Source of the DNA: Oligoflexia bacterium | Lineage (GTDB): Bacteria; Bdellovibrionota; Bdellovibrionia; JABDDW01 | Direction of reading: 5' to 3' | NCBI GenBank assembly: GCA_016715815.1 | Contig: JADJXN010000014.1 | Location: 171,767-235,766 of the forward strand | Length of the DNA: 64,000 nucleotides | Part shown: piece by piece, positions 34,775-49,606 of the stretch | Layout of the letters: each line of letters begins with the position of its first letter | How positions within the stretch are numbered: the stretch's first letter is position 1 | Translations under genes and position numbers: made by a program | The notes under the pieces: generated by a model | The model's input: the letters and a program-made list of their open reading frames with translations, nothing else | Told to the model about the DNA's origin: nothing | Database searches by the model: none

Positions 34775-36292
34775 ATGGATATTTTAAGTTTAATACTACT
34801 AGCTGCAGGAGTTCTTGCAGGATGCGGTGTTGGTTTTGGAATTAAAAAATACCTAGACGCCAAAAAACTAAAAGCAGCTGATGAAGTTGCAAGGCAAACC
34901 ATTGCAAAAGCAAAAGAGCAAGCCAATGTAATAGACATGCAAGCAAAAAGGCGAGCCCAGCAAATTGAACAAAATGCTCAAAGCCAAATGGATAGAGAAA
35001 ACAGACGAAGAGAAAATGAGGCCCGCGAGCTAGAGCGAAGATTAAAAGACAAGGAAAGTCAGTTTGAACAAAAAATTCAAAACCTAGATCATAAAGAAAA
35101 GCGTGTGAAAGAGCATGAGGAAAAGCTTCACTTAACAGAAAAGCAGCTTCAGGAAAAATTAGAGCACATTTCTTCTCTCACCCGTGAAGAAGCTAAAAAA
35201 ACATTGATTGATTCTTTGGAGGGTGAGGCAAAACTTGATGCTGCTAAAAACATAAAAATCATTGAAGAAGAAGCAAAACAAGAGGCGGAAAAAAGATCTA
35301 AAAAAATTATTGCTCTTGCCATTGCTCGTTATGCTGGAGAGTACAGCTCTGAGAGAACAGTTTCAGTGATTCAACTTCCTAATGAAGAAATGAAGGGGCG
35401 CCTCATAGGACGTGAGGGAAGAAACATTAGAGCTCTTGAAGCAGTGACTGGTATGGATTTAATTATTGATGATACCCCTGAAGCCGTTATTATTTCAGGT
35501 TTTGACCCTGTAAGGCGTGAGATTGCAAAAATGACCATTGAAGGTCTTATGCAAGACGGGCGTGTGCACCCATCAAGAATTGAAGAGCTGGCTGAAAAAT
35601 CAAAACAAATGCTTTTTAAAACAATTAAAGATGATGGTGAAAAGGCAATGTTTGATTTAGGAGTGCATGGAGTTCATCCGGAACTTGTGAGACTTATTGG
35701 CTCTTTAAAATATAGAACAAGTTATACACAAAGTAACTACGCTCACTCAATAGAAGTTGGCTTTTTGGCTGGCATGATGGCTGCTGAATTAGGTCAAAAC
35801 GTAAAAGCAGCACGTCGAGCCGGAGTTTTACATGATTTAGGTAAAGCCCTTGATCATAACATTGAGGGAAGCCATGCCGTTATTGGGGCCGAGTATGCTA
35901 AAAAGTACGGAGAGCCTGCAGATATTGTTCATGCCATTCGAGCGCACCATGAGGATGAAAAACCAAATTCAATATTAGCTCATTTAGTGCAAGCCTCAGA
36001 TGCACTCTCAGGTGCAAGACCGGGTGCAAGGCGAGAAGTAATGCAAACCTATGTGAACCGCCTTGAGGATTTAGAAACCATTGGAAATAGTTTTGATGGT
36101 GTTATTAGAACTTTTGCTATTCAAGCAGGCCGTGAAATTAGAGTTGTGGTTGATAGCGAAAAGGTTACTGATGAGCAAAGCATAATGCTTAGCCGTGATA
36201 TTGCTCGTAAAATTGAAAAAGAAATGACTTACCCTGGGCAAATTAAAGTTACTGTTTTAAGAGAAACCCGTGCTGTGGAGCACGCTCGCTGA
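34775..36292 (+). CDS. rny: ribonuclease Y
   Basis: N-terminal TM anchor, coiled coil, KH domain ([15 protein letters not shown]), HD domain (HSIEV...GVLHDLGK). Confidence 0.9.
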
Positions 36293-37582: not shown

Positions 37583-37960
37583 GTGAAAGTTAAATTTATA
37601 CCTCAAAACATTGAATGTGAAATCGCACCTGGTGAGAGTGTTCTTGATGTTGCAAGAAAAAATAATGTCTTTATAAAATCAGTTTGTGGTGGGGTGCCAA
37701 GCTGTTCTGAGTGTAGGGTTAAAGTTGTAGGTGGTGGGCATAATATTTTACCCCCTAATTTTAAAGAAAAATCCCTTATTGGCTCCGCCTATTTTATTGA
37801 TCAGTCTCGCCTTAGTTGCCAAATAAAATGCATGGGAGATGTGACTGTGGATTTGACAGAGCAAATTGAAAAAGAAAAACTTTTAGGCGAGAGCGGCAAA
37901 AAGCTAGCTTTTAGATCCACTGTAAATCCTGACCCGGATTTAGATTTTAAAAAGAAATAA
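37583..37960 (+). CDS. 2Fe-2S ferredoxin-like protein (GTG start)
   Basis: Cys pattern CGGVPSCSEC ... RLSCQ. Confidence 0.7.
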   Translation: MKVKFIPQNIECEIAPGESVLDVARKNNVFIKSVCGGVPSCSECRVKVVGGGHNILPPNFKEKSLIGSAYFIDQSRLSCQIKCMGDVTVDLTEQIEKEKLLGESGKKLAFRSTVNPDPDLDFKKK

Positions 37961-37961
37961 T

Positions 37962-38624
37962 TTAGTAAGGATCAATTTTAAATATTTTATTCTCTGTTGG
38001 GGAATAAATTGCATTGAGTATTGAAAGGGTGGGATCAGCCTGTGCTGCTTGAACTAAAAGCTCTCCAATAGATTTTAATTTTTCTTTTGAAAAACCAAGT
38101 TCTTGTTCGAAAACAAAAACATCGCGTAGGGGAATTCCCTCTTTATATTCTAAAAGTAAAACACCTTTTGAGGTATCTATATCAAAAACCTGTGGCAGAT
38201 CTGGATCTGCATTATGCATTCTAAGATTTGTTTGAAAATTTATTTCGCCTTTAATTATTTTTGCTACTCTTAAATTGTTTTTTTGATCAGCTGAGTTTAC
38301 TAAATAAACACTTCCAATTTTACCTTGCCCGAGTATTTCAAGAACTTTTAGAGTTGTATTATTAAACTCAATCTCTGTCCCTATAGGGAGCAACCCCTTT
38401 TTTAATTTTGCCTCTCTTGAGAGTTCAAACCATTTTTTAACCTGTCTATCTACAGTGGTAAGTGGGTCAGCATCAGGGGCAAGCTTTGAAACTGATTTTA
38501 CACAAAATGGAATCCTTGGTTTTTTAGGGGGTTGTTGGGCAAAGCCCAAATTGGGCATAGCAATGCCTAAAAAGCATACAAGTAGTTGAAATATAAAGGT
38601 TTTAAGGGCTTTTAAAGCGATCAT
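37962..38624 (-). CDS. secreted protein resembling a protein-kinase N-lobe only (kinase-like fragment)
   Basis: Signal peptide; Gly-rich loop-like LGQGKIGSVYLV and VAKIIK; no catalytic loop or DFG before the stop. Confidence 0.45.
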   Translation of the reverse strand: MIALKALKTFIFQLLVCFLGIAMPNLGFAQQPPKKPRIPFCVKSVSKLAPDADPLTTVDRQVKKWFELSREAKLKKGLLPIGTEIEFNNTTLKVLEILGQGKIGSVYLVNSADQKNNLRVAKIIKGEINFQTNLRMHNADPDLPQVFDIDTSKGVLLLEYKEGIPLRDVFVFEQELGFSKEKLKSIGELLVQAAQADPTLSILNAIYSPTENKIFKIDPY

Positions 38625-38654: not shown

Positions 38655-39650
38655 TTATACACGCATTAAGCTTGCGCCCCAGGTGAAGCCTGAACCAAAA
38701 GCGACCATGGCCACAAGTTGGCCTGGTTTTAAAAGGCCGGCGCGTTTGGCTTCATCCATCCCAATGGGAAGAGTGCCTGCGGTAGTGTTGCCATATTTTT
38801 GAATAGTATTAAGTGTTTTATCTTGGGGGATGCCAAGTTGTTCAAGAACCATTTGGTTAATTCTCATGTTTGCTTGGTGGGCTAATACAAAATCAATGTC
38901 TTTAGGTTTAACATCAATACTATGGCAGGCTTCAACTAAAACCTCACACATGCGAGTGACTGCATGTTTAAAAACAAAGCGTCCGTCCATGACAGGGAAA
39001 AAAGATTTATCTGTTACTGTTTCGTCTTTATCTAATCTATTAGGGTAGTCATTGCTTGAGGGGCGTTGAACCATTAATTTTTCTGCATATTCACCTTCAG
39101 AATGAAGCTTATGAACTAAAAGCCCTTCACCTGGTTTTGAAGGCTCAACTACTACAGCTCCAGCACCATCACCAAATAAAACTGAAACGTCTCGCCCTTC
39201 TGGAGATTTATCAAGGCCTGTGGAGTGAATTTCACTTCCAACAACTAACACGCATTTATACATGCCAGATTTCACCCACGCATCAGCAATACTTAAGGCA
39301 TATAAAAAACCACTACAAGCATTACGTACATCAAGGGCGGGAATTGTTCTCTCGGGGCAGAGCATTTTTTGAAGTAACACGCCACTTCCGGGAAAATAAT
39401 AATCTGGTGTGATAGTGGCAAAAACAATCGCATCAACATCACTAGCTTTTTTGCCAGCATCTTTTAAGGCTTCAAGGGCGGCTTTGTGGGCCATGCCACT
39501 AGTGGTTTCCCCCTCTGTGATCCAGTAGCGTTGTATAATACCGGAGCGTTGCTGGATCCATTCATCAGAAGTATTTAATTTTGTCTCAAGGTCTTTATTG
39601 GTAACTAGCTTTGAGGGAATATATTTTCCAACACCGGTTATTTTTGACAT
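38655..39650 (-). CDS. fabH: 3-oxoacyl-ACP synthase III
   Basis: Active-site Cys region NACSGFLYAL, C-terminal AFGSGFTWGA. Confidence 0.9.
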   Translation of the reverse strand: MSKITGVGKYIPSKLVTNKDLETKLNTSDEWIQQRSGIIQRYWITEGETTSGMAHKAALEALKDAGKKASDVDAIVFATITPDYYFPGSGVLLQKMLCPERTIPALDVRNACSGFLYALSIADAWVKSGMYKCVLVVGSEIHSTGLDKSPEGRDVSVLFGDGAGAVVVEPSKPGEGLLVHKLHSEGEYAEKLMVQRPSSNDYPNRLDKDETVTDKSFFPVMDGRFVFKHAVTRMCEVLVEACHSIDVKPKDIDFVLAHQANMRINQMVLEQLGIPQDKTLNTIQKYGNTTAGTLPIGMDEAKRAGLLKPGQLVAMVAFGSGFTWGASLMRV

Positions 39651-41233: not shown

Positions 41234-42247
41234 ATGAAGATAGCCTTATTTCACGACTCTTTACTTCCCCCAAAAAACTACGGTGGAATTGAAAGAATTG
41301 TTGTCACTTTATCTGAAGAGTATGTGCGTCTGGGCCATGATGTTTGGGTTGTGTGTCGAGCTGGATCAAAGCTTTCGGAGCCTGTAAAAGTTATTGAAAT
41401 TCCAAAAAATTGGAACGGAAAAAATATTGAAGACATTATTCCCTCAGAGATTGAATTTATTCACTCGCACCAACCGCTAGTGGTAGAGCCAAAGCGGCCG
41501 TATTTAGTAACCATTCATGGTAATGGGCATTTAAAAGAAAAATATTTAGCAAACACAAATTTTTTGAGCCAAAGCCATGCTAAAAACCACAACTCCAAAA
41601 TCTTTGTTTTTAACGGGGTGGACCCAAAACGCTATAACTTTTTAGATCAAAAAGAAGATTATTATTTATTTTTAGCTAAAACCACCTGGAGAGTTAAAAA
41701 TTTAAAAACTGCTCTAAACTTCGCTAAAGATTTAAAAGTAAAATTAAAAATCATTGGCGGTAATGGCCCTTCAAATGAATTTGTTGAATATTTAGGTTTT
41801 GTTGATGATAAAATTAAAAACCAAGTTTTATCTAAAGCAAAAGCCCTTATTTACCCAACTAATTGGGATGAGCCTTGCGCAGCAGCACCCCTTGAAGCTT
41901 TAGCCTGTGGTACACCCGTTATAGCTACAAAAAATGGTTGTATGCCTGAAATGGTTGAGGATGGTATAACTGGAGTTCTTTGTGATAATTATTCTCAACT
42001 ACTAGCGGCGCCGGAGAAGTTAAAAACTGTTAGTTACACAAAGTGCCGTCAAAATGTAGAGCAATACTTTAGTGTGCAAAGAATGGCTGAGGATTATTTG
42101 AGTCTTTTTGGTGAAATTATTAAAAAGGGAAAACTAGTTTCAGAGACAGATTTACCAAGATATAATTTTAAAAAAGAGAGTGTTAAATATTTATTTAAAC
42201 CAACAATAAAGAATAAATTACAATTTTCCCTTTTAGGGAAAATTTAA
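41234..42247 (+). CDS. glycosyltransferase (GT-B fold, GT4-like)
   Basis: C-terminal EPCAAAPLEALACGTPVIAT resembles GT4 E-x7-E region. Confidence 0.6.
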   Translation: MKIALFHDSLLPPKNYGGIERIVVTLSEEYVRLGHDVWVVCRAGSKLSEPVKVIEIPKNWNGKNIEDIIPSEIEFIHSHQPLVVEPKRPYLVTIHGNGHLKEKYLANTNFLSQSHAKNHNSKIFVFNGVDPKRYNFLDQKEDYYLFLAKTTWRVKNLKTALNFAKDLKVKLKIIGGNGPSNEFVEYLGFVDDKIKNQVLSKAKALIYPTNWDEPCAAAPLEALACGTPVIATKNGCMPEMVEDGITGVLCDNYSQLLAAPEKLKTVSYTKCRQNVEQYFSVQRMAEDYLSLFGEIIKKGKLVSETDLPRYNFKKESVKYLFKPTIKNKLQFSLLGKI

Positions 42248-42261
42248 GAAAGAGAAGAGCT

Positions 42262-43212
42262 TTGAAGGTTATTGTTACAGGTGGAGCAGGTTTTATTGGA
42301 AGCCATCTTTGTTTAAGGCTTTTAGAAGCAGGCCAAGAAGTTATAGCTATTGATGATTTAAGCTTAGGGCAAAAAAAATATCTGGACCCATGTTTTAAAT
42401 TTAAAAAATTTAAATTTGTAAAAGAAGATTTAACAAAATTTAATAGAATTAAAAAATTTTTTAAAAATGTACATAGAGTTTGGCATTTAGCCGCCAATTC
42501 AGACATTTTAGCAGGGGCTAAATCAACAGATAGAGATTTAAAAATTGGAACCATTGCAACTTATAATGTTTTAGAAGCTGCAAGACTAAATAAAGTTAAG
42601 GAATTTGTTTTTTCATCAACAAGTGCTATTTATGGTGAGGCTGAGATTAAACCAACCCCTGAAAACTATGGCCCACTTTTACCAATTAGTTTTTACGGTG
42701 CAAGTAAACTTGCCTGCGAGGCTTTAGCTACAGCGTTTTCCCATAATTTTGAAATGAAGGTTTGGATTTACCGCTTTGCCAACATAGTTGGCCCGCATAC
42801 AACTCATGGAGTAATTCATGATTTTATTAAAAAACTGAAAAAAAATCCAAGAGAGCTTGCCATTTTAGGTAATGGCCAGCAGGCAAAAAGTTATTTACAC
42901 GTGAATGATTGCATAAATGCCATGATCTTTGGTTTAGAAAATGTATCTAATGAGGTTAATTTATTTAACCTTGCATCAAGTGGTGTTTGCCAAGTAGATA
43001 AAATTGCAGATTATGTCATTCAGGCTATGGGTCTAAAGGCCCAGAAGAAGTACTCAGGTGGAATTCAGGGTTGGAAAGGTGATGTGGCTCAGGTTAAAAT
43101 ATCAGCTGAGAAACTTCACAACTTAGGCTTTAAGCCCACGTATGACAGTGAAGCGGCAGTAAAACTTGCGATAAGTGAAATTTTAAACGATAAAAAATAT
43201 GGAATGAATTAA
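42262..43212 (+). CDS. NAD-dependent sugar epimerase/dehydratase (SDR family)
   Basis: Rossmann motif VTGGAGFIGSHL; YxxxK present (YGASKLACE). Confidence 0.8.
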   Translation: MKVIVTGGAGFIGSHLCLRLLEAGQEVIAIDDLSLGQKKYLDPCFKFKKFKFVKEDLTKFNRIKKFFKNVHRVWHLAANSDILAGAKSTDRDLKIGTIATYNVLEAARLNKVKEFVFSSTSAIYGEAEIKPTPENYGPLLPISFYGASKLACEALATAFSHNFEMKVWIYRFANIVGPHTTHGVIHDFIKKLKKNPRELAILGNGQQAKSYLHVNDCINAMIFGLENVSNEVNLFNLASSGVCQVDKIADYVIQAMGLKAQKKYSGGIQGWKGDVAQVKISAEKLHNLGFKPTYDSEAAVKLAISEILNDKKYGMN

Positions 43213-43943
43213 TGCATAAACCACAAGTTGTCATTTTAGCAGGGGGACTGGGAACACGTTTAGGAGATATAACAAAAGAAATTCCTAAACCAATGGTTTT
43301 AGTTTCTGGAAAGCCATTTTTAGAATGGCAAATTGAGCATTTAAAAAAGCATGGTTTTACAAAAATTCTTCTTTTAACAGGTTATAAATCAGAACAGATT
43401 AAAAGTTATTTTGATAACGGTAAAAAATGGGGTGTTGAAATTGAATATAGTGTTGAAAAAGATCAAATGGGTACAGGTGGCGCTCTTTTACAAGCAAGGT
43501 ATCAACTAGAGGGAGATTTTTTATTATTATTTGGAGATAGTTTTTTACCGGTGGATTACCAGGGTATGCTAGCCATGCTTGACCACAATACCGATGTTGT
43601 CATGGCCGTTTATAATAATAAAGAAGACACAGGCGTTCCGTTTAATGTTTCTATAAATACAAACTTTTTTGTAGATACTTATTATAAAGAAGGGCTCTCT
43701 CTTCCAAAGCCTGAAAAGCCTTTAAAATATGTTGAAGCAGGCGCTTATTTAGTAAGAAAAAATGTGATCGCAGGGCAATCTTTAAAGTATTGTTCTTTTG
43801 AAGCTGAAATTTTAAAAGGTGTAATTAAAATGCATCGGATGAAGGCTTGGATTTCAGATTCGCGCTTTTATGATATTGGAACACCTGAGAGATTAAAATT
43901 ATTTGAAAGGAAGATTCGTGATTATTTCCCGAACGCCCTTTAG
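43212..43943 (+). CDS. sugar-1-phosphate nucleotidyltransferase (heptose/mannose-1-P guanylyl/cytidylyltransferase-like)
   Basis: N-terminal VVILAGGLGTRL nucleotide-binding motif. Confidence 0.75.
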   Translation: MHKPQVVILAGGLGTRLGDITKEIPKPMVLVSGKPFLEWQIEHLKKHGFTKILLLTGYKSEQIKSYFDNGKKWGVEIEYSVEKDQMGTGGALLQARYQLEGDFLLLFGDSFLPVDYQGMLAMLDHNTDVVMAVYNNKEDTGVPFNVSINTNFFVDTYYKEGLSLPKPEKPLKYVEAGAYLVRKNVIAGQSLKYCSFEAEILKGVIKMHRMKAWISDSRFYDIGTPERLKLFERKIRDYFPNAL

Positions 43944-44889
43944 ATTAAGTTTTGCCGGTGGTGGTTCAGATCTTGCTTCTTTTTACCAAAATCAAGAAGG
44001 GGCTGTGATTTCAACAGCCATTAATAAATACATGCACATTACTGTTAATAAGCGTTTTGATAACACCATACGCTTGAGTTATTCAAAAACAGAAATTTGC
44101 CAAAATGTAGATGAAATTGAACATAAAATTTTTAAGCACGTATTACAAAAATATGCCCCAGAGGGGGGGCTTGAGATTATTTCCATGGCTGATATTCCAT
44201 CAGGCACAGGGCTTGGTTCAAGCTCAAGCTTTACAGTAGCCCTCCTTCATGCTCTTAAAGGGTATAAAGGGATAATGGCTACTCAAGATGTGTTGGCAGA
44301 AGAAGCTTGTGATATTGAAATTGAAAAACTTCATGAGCCCATTGGCAAACAAGACCAATACATTGCTGCTTTTGGAGGGTTACAATTTATTCGCTTTTTG
44401 CCAAACGGAAAAGTTTTTGTTGAGCCTGTTGTATGCCTTGATAGTACAAAAAAAGAGCTTGAGGCAAGTTGTATGATGTTTTTTACAGGTCTCACTCGTG
44501 ATGCAAAAACCATTTTAAGCGAGCAAAAAACCAATACCACTGCAAAAACAGAGGTTTTAAAAGAAATGGTTAGTCATGCCCATGAGCTGAAAAAAATCTT
44601 AGAACAGGGTAAAGACTTAAAGCGCTTTGGTGAAATTTTAAACCAATCTTGGGAGCTTAAAAAAACCATGGCTTCAAACGTAAGTAACCCTCAAATAGAC
44701 CAGTGGTATGGCCAAGCTCTAGAAGCAGGGGCTTTGGGGGGTAAAATTTTAGGTGCTGGTGGCGGGGGCTTTCTTATGTTATTTTGCGAGCCTAAAAAGC
44801 AAATGAGGGTCAAAGAGGCATTAAAAAGCTTAAAAGTTTTTAATACCCAATTAGAGCCTCAAGGTAGTAGAATTATTTTTGTTGGTTAA
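43903..44889 (+). CDS. GHMP-family sugar kinase (D-glycero-D-manno-heptose 7-phosphate kinase-like); start may be GTG 43918
   Basis: GHMP ATP-binding motif PSGTGLGSSSS; context with SIS isomerase and nucleotidyltransferase. Confidence 0.75.
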   Translation: MKGRFVIISRTPFRLSFAGGGSDLASFYQNQEGAVISTAINKYMHITVNKRFDNTIRLSYSKTEICQNVDEIEHKIFKHVLQKYAPEGGLEIISMADIPSGTGLGSSSSFTVALLHALKGYKGIMATQDVLAEEACDIEIEKLHEPIGKQDQYIAAFGGLQFIRFLPNGKVFVEPVVCLDSTKKELEASCMMFFTGLTRDAKTILSEQKTNTTAKTEVLKEMVSHAHELKKILEQGKDLKRFGEILNQSWELKKTMASNVSNPQIDQWYGQALEAGALGGKILGAGGGGFLMLFCEPKKQMRVKEALKSLKVFNTQLEPQGSRIIFVG

Positions 44890-44912
44890 TTTTTTTAAAG
44901 GCAAGGTTAGTT

Positions 44913-45482
44913 TTGGAAGTAAAAGATTTTACAGAGAAATACTTAGAAGAAGCCCATAAGATTTTTGATATTTATAAAGGCCCTGAATTTGCCAAAGCCA
45001 TGGATTTAATGTGGCAGGCCTATAATGACAACAAACAGGTTTTTATTTTTGGCAATGGCGGATCAGCAGGCACCGCTCAGCACATGGTTAATGATCTTTC
45101 TAAAGGCACAAGCGTTGAGGGTAAAAAAAGGCTTCGTGTGATTGGTTTGGCAGATAATATGAGTTTATTAACAGCCTATGCTAATGATTGTGGGTATGAA
45201 GTAGTATTTGAGGAGCAATTAAAAAATTTATTAAACCCTGGGGATATTTGTATTGCTATTTCAGCAAGTGGGAATTCCCCAAATGTTGTTAAAGCGGTAG
45301 AGTATGCTCGTAAAAATAGCGCTAAAGTTATTGGCCTTGTTGGTTTTAGTGGTGGCAAACTAAAACCTTTAAGTGATGTTGCCATTTATTTTGAAACATA
45401 TAATTACGGAATTTGTGAAGATGCTCAGCTTATGTTTTCTCATTTAAGCTCACAATTTTTACATCAAAGAATTAAAGGTTAA
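44913..45482 (+). CDS. gmhA: SIS-domain phosphoheptose isomerase
   Basis: FGNGGSAGTAQH and ISASGNSPNV SIS motifs. Confidence 0.75.
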   Translation: MEVKDFTEKYLEEAHKIFDIYKGPEFAKAMDLMWQAYNDNKQVFIFGNGGSAGTAQHMVNDLSKGTSVEGKKRLRVIGLADNMSLLTAYANDCGYEVVFEEQLKNLLNPGDICIAISASGNSPNVVKAVEYARKNSAKVIGLVGFSGGKLKPLSDVAIYFETYNYGICEDAQLMFSHLSSQFLHQRIKG

Positions 45483-45851
45483 ATGCTTTACGGGGAAGAA
45501 ATAATTAAAAATGCCAAGCTTGAAGCCTTTGATAATAGAACAACCCATAGACGCTATTGGGTAGAGTTTGATTGCCCCGAGTTTACTTGCGTTTGTCCCA
45601 AAAGTGGGTTTCCTGATTTTGCGACGATCAAAATCCGCTACTCTCCTGATAAAAAATGTGTGGAATTAAAAAGTCTAAAACTTTATATCAATGGTTTTCG
45701 GGATAAAAAAGTATTCCACGAAGATGTAACCAACAACATTATGGATGATTTAATAATGCTCCTTGACCCTTGGGAAATTGAAGTGATTGGGGACTTTAAT
45801 GTTCGAGGGAACATTAAAACCGTTATCAAAGCGCACCACAAAAAGGGCTGA
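45483..45851 (+). CDS. queF: NADPH-dependent 7-cyano-7-deazaguanine reductase
   Basis: QueF motif EFTCVCPKSGFPDF and downstream E(S/L)K...H region. Confidence 0.85.
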   Translation: MLYGEEIIKNAKLEAFDNRTTHRRYWVEFDCPEFTCVCPKSGFPDFATIKIRYSPDKKCVELKSLKLYINGFRDKKVFHEDVTNNIMDDLIMLLDPWEIEVIGDFNVRGNIKTVIKAHHKKG

Positions 45852-49529: not shown

Positions 49530-49606
49530 GCGGCAGTAGCTCAATTGGATAGAGCATCAGACTTCGGATCTGAGGGTTGAGGGTTCAAGTCCTTCCTGCC
49601 GCGCCA
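49530..49606 (+). tRNA. tRNA-Arg, anticodon TCG, with encoded CCA
   Basis: Hand-folded cloverleaf: acceptor GCGGCAG/CTGCCGC, D-stem GCTC/GAGC, anticodon stem TCAGA/TCTGA, loop CTTCGGA, T-loop TTCAAGT, discriminator G, CCA. Confidence 0.9.

Follow-up and report, generated by a model that had tools for sequence, protein, structure and literature searches.

Does an open reading frame of 220 codons that carries kinase-like motifs and stops against a neighbouring gene encode the remains of a protein kinase, or a complete protein? The question is raised by a gene in the window, by which is meant the whole 64-kb stretch of DNA from an Oligoflexia bacterium that was analysed. An earlier note on this DNA had placed a 220-aa ORF at 37962-38624, and the ORF list contains it on the minus strand; the product is identical to the NCBI entry 'MAG: hypothetical protein IPM57_11990 [Oligoflexia bacterium]'. 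The three motifs that had drawn attention to it are all found in the translation, namely LGQGKIGSVYLV (residues 98-109), VAKIIK (residues 120-125) and LLLEYKEG (residues 156-163). The gene and its immediate neighbours are as follows.

37962-38624, minus strand: the whole gene, with an ATG start, 220 codons and a TAA stop at 37962-37964 (ORF list)
37583-37960, plus strand: 2Fe-2S ferredoxin gene, convergent with the gene (Pfam Fer2), given as context outside the feature
38655-39650, minus strand: FabH-type 3-oxoacyl-ACP synthase III gene, 30 nt upstream of the gene (Pfam ACP_syn_III and ACP_syn_III_C)

The gene had been described as convergent with the ferredoxin gene and as having neither a kinase C-lobe nor room for one. 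In the sequence the two stop codons are indeed one base apart and that of the target gene abuts the ferredoxin gene; because only base 37961 separates them, no coding room is left downstream. The same single base (window 37958-37964) leaves no space for a terminator between the convergent genes, and in the orthologous locus the ends of the two genes overlap by 4 nt (L001:8645-8648). Read from its sequence, the product appears to be an exported kinase-like protein, the chain of which stops short of the rest of the C-lobe.

Searched exhaustively with phmmer, 1.84 billion cluster representatives yield 28 relatives at E <= 1e-3, mostly 200-260 aa long and 21-43% identical to the query protein, and the alignment of these 28 sequences is referred to below as A1. 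Matches of single sequences to domain models are faint. Pfam Pkinase (PF00069) covers only residues 93-127 of the query, which include the Gly-rich loop and the Lys, at 11.4 bits against a gathering threshold of 31.7 (E 0.21), and it matches only six of the 28 members at E <= 1. Pfam ABC1 matches over the hinge (E 0.042), also below threshold. The NCBIfam Bud32 match (E 9e-5) aligns residues 138-218 with profile positions 70-153 but stays below the cut-offs of NF011460 (21.7 bits vs 199) and TIGR03724 (11.8 vs 125), and two further kinase models match as well. No significant Pfam or NCBIfam match was obtained for the family, and the single-sequence matches to Bud32, Pkinase and ABC1 are weak but consistent in suggesting a kinase.

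When the A1 profile is run against all PDB sequences, 364 matches are obtained at E <= 10, the best 60 of which are all protein kinases, headed by Bacillus subtilis YabT (7e-6) and Staphylococcus aureus PknB (2e-5). Against PknB, the aligned region begins at strand 1 and reaches the catalytic-loop Asn, where 'ikpqNi' and 'igksNa' are paired. By hhalign, A1 matches an ordinary Hanks kinase with 96% probability and a 229-aa archaeal Bud32/RIO-like kinase with 97%. AlphaFold2 supplied with A1 (28 sequences) gives a model with a mean pLDDT of 89.2, rising to 96-98 across residues 81-220; this model is used throughout, the single-sequence model (pLDDT 45) having been set aside. Foldseek gives kinases both from the PDB (509 matches at E <= 1e-3) and from viral models. 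The profile and structure searches proposed in the earlier note thus both lead to kinases, and since profile, model and fold searches agree, the kinase-fold similarity on which that note depended is present. The kinase-fold assignment, drawn from sequence profiles and a predicted structure, is regarded as solid. The parts of the domain lie as follows.

38409-38465, minus strand: conserved N-terminal helix, residues 54-72, with the family motif (D/H/N)PxVxxWL
38145-38393, minus strand: kinase N-lobe, residues 78-160, comprising strands 1-5 and helix C (model, conservation and hhalign)
38307-38333, minus strand: Gly-rich loop L98-G99-x-G101-x-x-G104-x-V106, within the N-lobe
38259-38261, minus strand: codon of the beta3 Lys, K122, invariant in 28 of 28
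38037-38147, minus strand: hinge and helices D and E, residues 160-196 (model secondary structure and profile-match alignment to kinases)
37965-38036, minus strand: catalytic-loop remnant, strands 7/8 and DFG-equivalent Asp, residues 197-220 (conservation, and model with pLDDT 96-97)
38013-38015, minus strand: codon of the catalytic-loop Asn, N204, kept in 27 of 28 and lying opposite the PknB Asn in the profile alignment
37971-37973, minus strand: codon of the DFG-equivalent Asp, D218, within I217-D218-P219-Y220, the stop following directly after Y220

According to the model and conservation, strands 1-3 of the N-lobe occupy residues 84-124, helix C residues 127-139 and strands 4 and 5 residues 146-159, with P144 and D150 as other conserved positions. 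Both the GxGxxG loop (G99-x-G101-x-x-G104) and the beta3 (VAIK) Lys, K122, are in place. The hinge (residues 159-165, E159-Y160-K-E-G163-I-P) is followed by helix D (166-176) and helix E (180-196), then by a short loop (197-204) ending in N204, and residues 205-208 and 213-216 form beta7 and beta8 in the model. N204 and D218 are the equivalents of the metal ligands N171 and D184 in PKA numbering. Since beta7/beta8 and D218 are present and the stop comes two residues later, the equivalent of PKA G186 is the chain end itself.

The protein had been taken for an N-lobe only, ending before any catalytic loop or DFG motif. This description has to be given up: helices D and E, beta7/beta8 and the DFG-equivalent Asp are likewise part of the chain, the PknB alignment reaches the catalytic-loop Asn, and the Bud32 match extends as far as D218. 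About 60 C-lobe residues, both metal ligands included, are present, and about 100 that the C-lobe of a normal kinase would have are missing; the chain has no activation segment, no APE motif and no helices F to I, Y220 being its last residue. Two classical residues inside the retained part are also replaced. The αC Glu is not found in helix C, where the best-conserved position, N133, is mostly occupied by Asn or His across the family; the HRD Asp position, five residues before the Asn, is T199 in the query, with Asp in four and Glu in two of the 28 members. The protein falls within the operational definition of a pseudokinase (a kinase fold with at least one of the VAIK Lys, HRD Asp and DFG Asp missing), a definition that is silent on actual activity. 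Measured against the universal core of the PKL superfamily (Scheeff and Bourne, 2005), it has the N-lobe sheet with helix C, the linker, helix E, the catalytic loop, strands 7/8 and the metal-binding loop; the final core element, helix F, is missing, with zero residues beyond D218+2. Scheeff and Bourne (PMC1261164) describe helix F as the last element common to all kinase-like structures and as stabilising the catalytic loop; in kinase structural biology it is also regarded as a scaffold anchoring both hydrophobic spines.

The chain end is identical in all 28 representatives, two residues past the DFG-equivalent Asp and 16 past the Asn. G99, G101 and K122 are invariant (28 of 28), 27 of the 28 have N204 and 27 have D218, and at least 90% of members share C41, L98, L108, P144, D150, Y160, G163 and Y207. 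Inspection of homologues for full-length versions, which the earlier note had called for, revealed no relative with a C-lobe among the 28 from the exhaustive search of the 1.84 billion representatives. Two metagenome members are longer, P0013 (379 aa) and P0025 (474 aa), by N-terminal extensions only, with a C-terminus that is still ...IDP+1; the extra region lies between the signal peptide and the kinase-like module and measures about 180 aa in P0013 and about 270 aa, rich in Cys, in P0025. Weak matches to methyltransferase families of Pfam (E 0.07-0.15) occur in one family member.

The family is rare. Each 90% cluster comprises one or two members on one to six contigs. A scan of GTDB representative genomes with LLEYKEGIP found nothing, and a broader hinge pattern recovered from them ordinary kinases only (an archaeal Bud32/RIO-like protein, a match in Gemmatimonadaceae and a Hanks kinase of Paludibacter). 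A pattern scan of JGI metagenome contigs added zero further members, and a word-indexed profile search returned only four members, already known, or, with P0010 as the query, only P0010 itself. Other copies of the query gene are identical or differ by one synonymous base, and the 43% orthologue is too diverged for dN/dS. One such copy, with a single synonymous difference, lies on a short metagenome contig (L007, from SRR12009705). The sequence upstream of the gene there (L007:1-257) is unlike FabH and encodes the end of an unrelated 78-aa ORF; the similarity to the window breaks exactly at the FabH stop codon (window 38655 onward), which may reflect a strain rearrangement or an assembly chimera.

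The FabH gene is probably co-transcribed with the target gene, in the query lineage only. The 43%-identical orthologue, P0002, has the order IscA / FabH / gene / ferredoxin / TyrS, with the same C-terminus and a 30-nt gap after FabH. The linkage to FabH is limited to the query and this close orthologue, while P0003, P0007, P0010 and P0026 stand amid unrelated genes, apparently as single genes. A conserved partner gene was considered and rejected, the neighbours of these four being different, and because neighbours vary between members the gene context gives no functional clue. An identical end across such divergence and in such unrelated contexts indicates that the length of the chain after the Asp is itself constrained; as one explanation suggested by the sequences, the terminal carboxylate might have a role of its own, or the end might form an interface intolerant of extension.

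The neighbourhood of the gene in the window is a housekeeping one: on one side are the genes for 5-formyl-THF cyclo-ligase, RNase Y, TyrS and ferredoxin, and on the other side are FabH, an IscA-like protein, a cysteine desulfurase-like protein and a sugar-nucleotide/glycosyltransferase cluster. Neither a paralogue nor a separate C-lobe gene was found in the 64-kb window with the family HMM. An anti-phage defence kinase (PADLOC) was rejected on the grounds of weak N-lobe matches only (mad6, E 0.005) and the housekeeping neighbours. Scanning for promoters and terminators gave counts near those of shuffled sequence and no site between the gene and FabH; Rfam and tRNA scans gave a tRNA-Arg at 49530 and nothing else. 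As called, with a GTG start at 36270, the TyrS ORF shares 23 nt (36270-36292) with the end of the RNase Y gene, and its true start is probably a downstream Met, at MQKG... or MMAAEEQ.... The sugar-nucleotide cluster (window 41234-45851) is syntenic with L001:244-4916. In the window, Pfam recognises GT1 glycosyltransferase, NAD-dependent epimerase/dehydratase and NTP-transferase genes in the cluster; the presence there of a GHMP kinase, a SIS-domain protein and QueF, for which only L001 has annotations, is assumed from synteny. The product of the cluster may be an activated heptose or a sugar related to it.

Two further features precede the kinase-like domain.

38538-38624, minus strand: predicted Sec-type signal peptide, residues 1-29 (sequence inspection, n/h/c layout in relatives)
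38466-38537, minus strand: flexible linker, residues 30-53 (pLDDT 52-65), which carries C41

The signal peptide that had been read at the N-terminus corresponds to a signal-like hydrophobic segment in residues 1-29. By inspection, it has an n-region with K5 and K8, the h-region TFIFQLLVCFLGIAM and the c-region PNLGFA; the latter, as PNLGFA/QQ, obeys the -3/-1 rule, with the small residues G27 and A29 around F28, and residues 2-21 are a helix in the AlphaFold model. Nearly all full-length members follow the same pattern of a short positive n-region, an uncharged h-region of 11-20 aa and a c-region with small residues that is often AxA-like. The conserved Cys (C41, codon 38502-38504), kept in at least 90% of the sequences in A1, is usually the sole Cys of the mature protein and is placed 5-20 residues past the h-region. 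This layout suggests that the protein has a Sec/SPase-I signal and is located outside the cytoplasm, its one Cys either free or bonded to another molecule. The position of C41 shortly after the predicted cleavage site would allow an intermolecular disulfide, in a dimer or as a tether. A bacterial lipoprotein was rejected, there being no lipobox [LVI][ASTVI][GAS]C directly after the h-region; the triplets preceding the conserved Cys are IPF, KPS, ALK, VKQ, FAQ, HQK and others, with F, S, K, Q, R and others at -1.

Taken together, the protein would be an exported minimal nucleotide/Mg-binding kinase-like module, a reading to which we give a probability of roughly 0.6, with nucleotide binding, export and catalysis all predicted from sequence and model. 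A flexible N-terminal tether with its single conserved cysteine would hold a minimal domain made of the extra N-terminal helix, a complete N-lobe, the hinge, helices D/E, a shortened catalytic loop, strands 7/8 and the DFG-equivalent Asp. In this domain a nucleotide-Mg2+ complex would be bound in the usual kinase cleft, outside the cytoplasm, the putative cleft residues being V106, V120, K122, hinge residues 159-163, I206, I217, N204 and D218. The residues that hold ATP and Mg2+ are the most conserved of all and the base and substrate lobe are absent, which makes nucleotide-Mg2+ binding the likeliest mechanism. What such binding would serve is a separate matter. An atypical enzyme, hydrolysing ATP or transferring phosphate without the classical base, is given a little less than an even chance; the C-terminal carboxylate, with its strictly fixed position, might assist catalysis, as might a partner or dimer, and the activity could resemble the ATP hydrolysis of Bud32 or COQ8-type proteins. 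A nucleotide-binding pseudokinase acting by binding, for example as a sensor or scaffold, is the more tentative proposal of the two, the weighting resting on the conservation of both metal ligands, which is more typical of enzymes than of pseudokinases; a smaller remainder is left for other roles. Of the secreted nucleotide-binding pseudokinase fragment suggested in the earlier note, the pseudokinase part still stands as a candidate, T199 having taken the place of the HRD Asp, and the fragment part falls with the common end of the 28 members.

An ATP-dependent role outside the cytoplasm is awkward, since by the general view the periplasm and the exterior contain little ATP. The phylum Bdellovibrionota includes predatory bacteria, and for a member of it delivery into prey or host cells is conceivable. 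The short domain also bears on activity, since without helix F, described as stabilising the catalytic loop (PMC1261164), it may not hold a competent active site alone.

The protein might instead be a competent minimal kinase, acting on protein or on a small molecule, that is completed in trans by a homodimer, a partner or the target protein. The homodimer would perhaps be disulfide-linked via C41, and the missing C-lobe surface and general base would be supplied, for instance, inside ATP-containing prey or host cells. The strict conservation of N204, D218, the Lys and the Gly-rich loop fits active enzymes better than pseudokinases; P0003, P0004, P0010 and P0013 carry an Asp at the spacing of HRDxxxxN, exactly five residues ahead of the Asn; one unpaired Cys is conserved; and the source is an Oligoflexia MAG, from a phylum with predators. 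The catalytic Asp, however, is missing in at least 22 of the 28 members, the query included, no conserved neighbour gene is available to encode a partner, and an obvious conserved interface is absent because helix E is poorly conserved. On balance, completion in trans is doubtful.

If the N-terminal segment were an uncleaved membrane anchor, the kinase-like domain would face the ATP-rich cytoplasm and the supply of ATP would be solved. The query has Lys/Arg past the hydrophobic segment (KKPR...K...K, residues 34-47), so that the positive-inside rule could favour a cytoplasmic location of the C-terminal side. Against this, many members, P0005, P0010, P0018 and P0028 among them, have h-regions only 11-15 residues long, too short for a membrane span, and many have AxA-like c-regions (AQA, ASA, ALA, AVA) typical of cleaved signal peptides, and an anchor is accordingly judged improbable.

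Also improbable is the recruitment of the fold for a non-nucleotide binding or structural role, with the kinase motifs as relics: the loss of the αC Glu and of the HRD Asp and the predicted extracytoplasmic location would suit it, but relics would not be kept unchanged at about 25% identity, as G99, G101 and K122 are, or nearly so, as N204 and D218 are. The view of the earlier note that this may be a decayed kinase, whether a pseudogene or the product of a recent 3' truncation by the convergent ferredoxin gene, is effectively refuted, for although about 100 C-lobe residues are missing, the stop abuts the ferredoxin gene and single-sequence Pfam scores fall under the gathering thresholds, the 28 diverged representatives, most of them in unrelated gene contexts, share one end (the 43% orthologue among them), few or none of them lack any one of the ATP/Mg ligands, the confidence of the model is high and the exhaustive search turned up no full-length relative.

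The family is both well supported and structurally surprising. A conserved and confidently modelled family that has all ATP/Mg ligands and yet ends before helix F would lower the size limit of the fold. It would also be a natural experiment for telling apart the kinase elements that nucleotide binding needs from those that catalysis needs, and its apparent export poses the question of what role a nucleotide-binding kinase module has outside the bacterial cytoplasm. In the boldest form, which we consider unlikely, it would be the smallest self-folding kinase-like module known, Sec-exported and without helix F, performing ATP-Mg2+ chemistry outside the cytoplasm or in prey by means of its C-terminal carboxylate or of completion in trans by a partner, a target or a disulfide-linked dimer. 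How far the interest reaches is uncertain, given how rarely the family occurs.

In both sequence and structure, the family comes nearest to Hanks-type kinases of bacteria such as YabT (6g4j), Mycobacterium tuberculosis PknB (1mru) and S. aureus PknB (4eqm). In comparison with them, the query lacks the HRD Asp (T199), the αC Glu (N133), the activation segment, APE and helices F to I, and it begins with a predicted signal peptide, whereas Hanks-type kinases have their kinase domain in the cytoplasm and a membrane segment after it. The hinge region and overall size of the query resemble Bud32/RIO. Bud32 and RIO are cytoplasmic and keep the catalytic Asp and 40-60 residues past the DFG-like Asp, helix F included. 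The archaeal Bud32/RIO-like kinase, a minimal kinase of 229 aa (L011:3135-3824, on contig CAYHGC010000078.1 of an uncultured archaeon MAG), keeps 'DHGQL...N...ILDFE' and then about 45 more residues, while the query ends two past the Asp. Its hinge, 'PKLYEVDFEAGILLMEYIEGIPL', is nearly identical to the family consensus, and it is a useful outgroup for the origin of the truncated family. In concept, the nearest are minimal effector kinases and secreted pseudokinases. Among secreted kinase-fold proteins and pseudokinases, Toxoplasma ROP5 and the secretory-pathway kinases POMK and Fam20 are eukaryotic, have complete two-lobed domains and belong to ATP-containing compartments, with zero specific sequence relationship to the query family. 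HopBF1 is described as a minimal and atypical kinase fold (PMC9950578), and effector kinases of its type are, like the query with its predicted export, very small kinase-fold proteins that leave the producer cell. Since the thresholds of Pfam Pkinase and NCBIfam Bud32 are not reached and defining features of these families are missing, these proteins should be placed as a new family of new architecture within the kinase-like superfamily, outside every named family.
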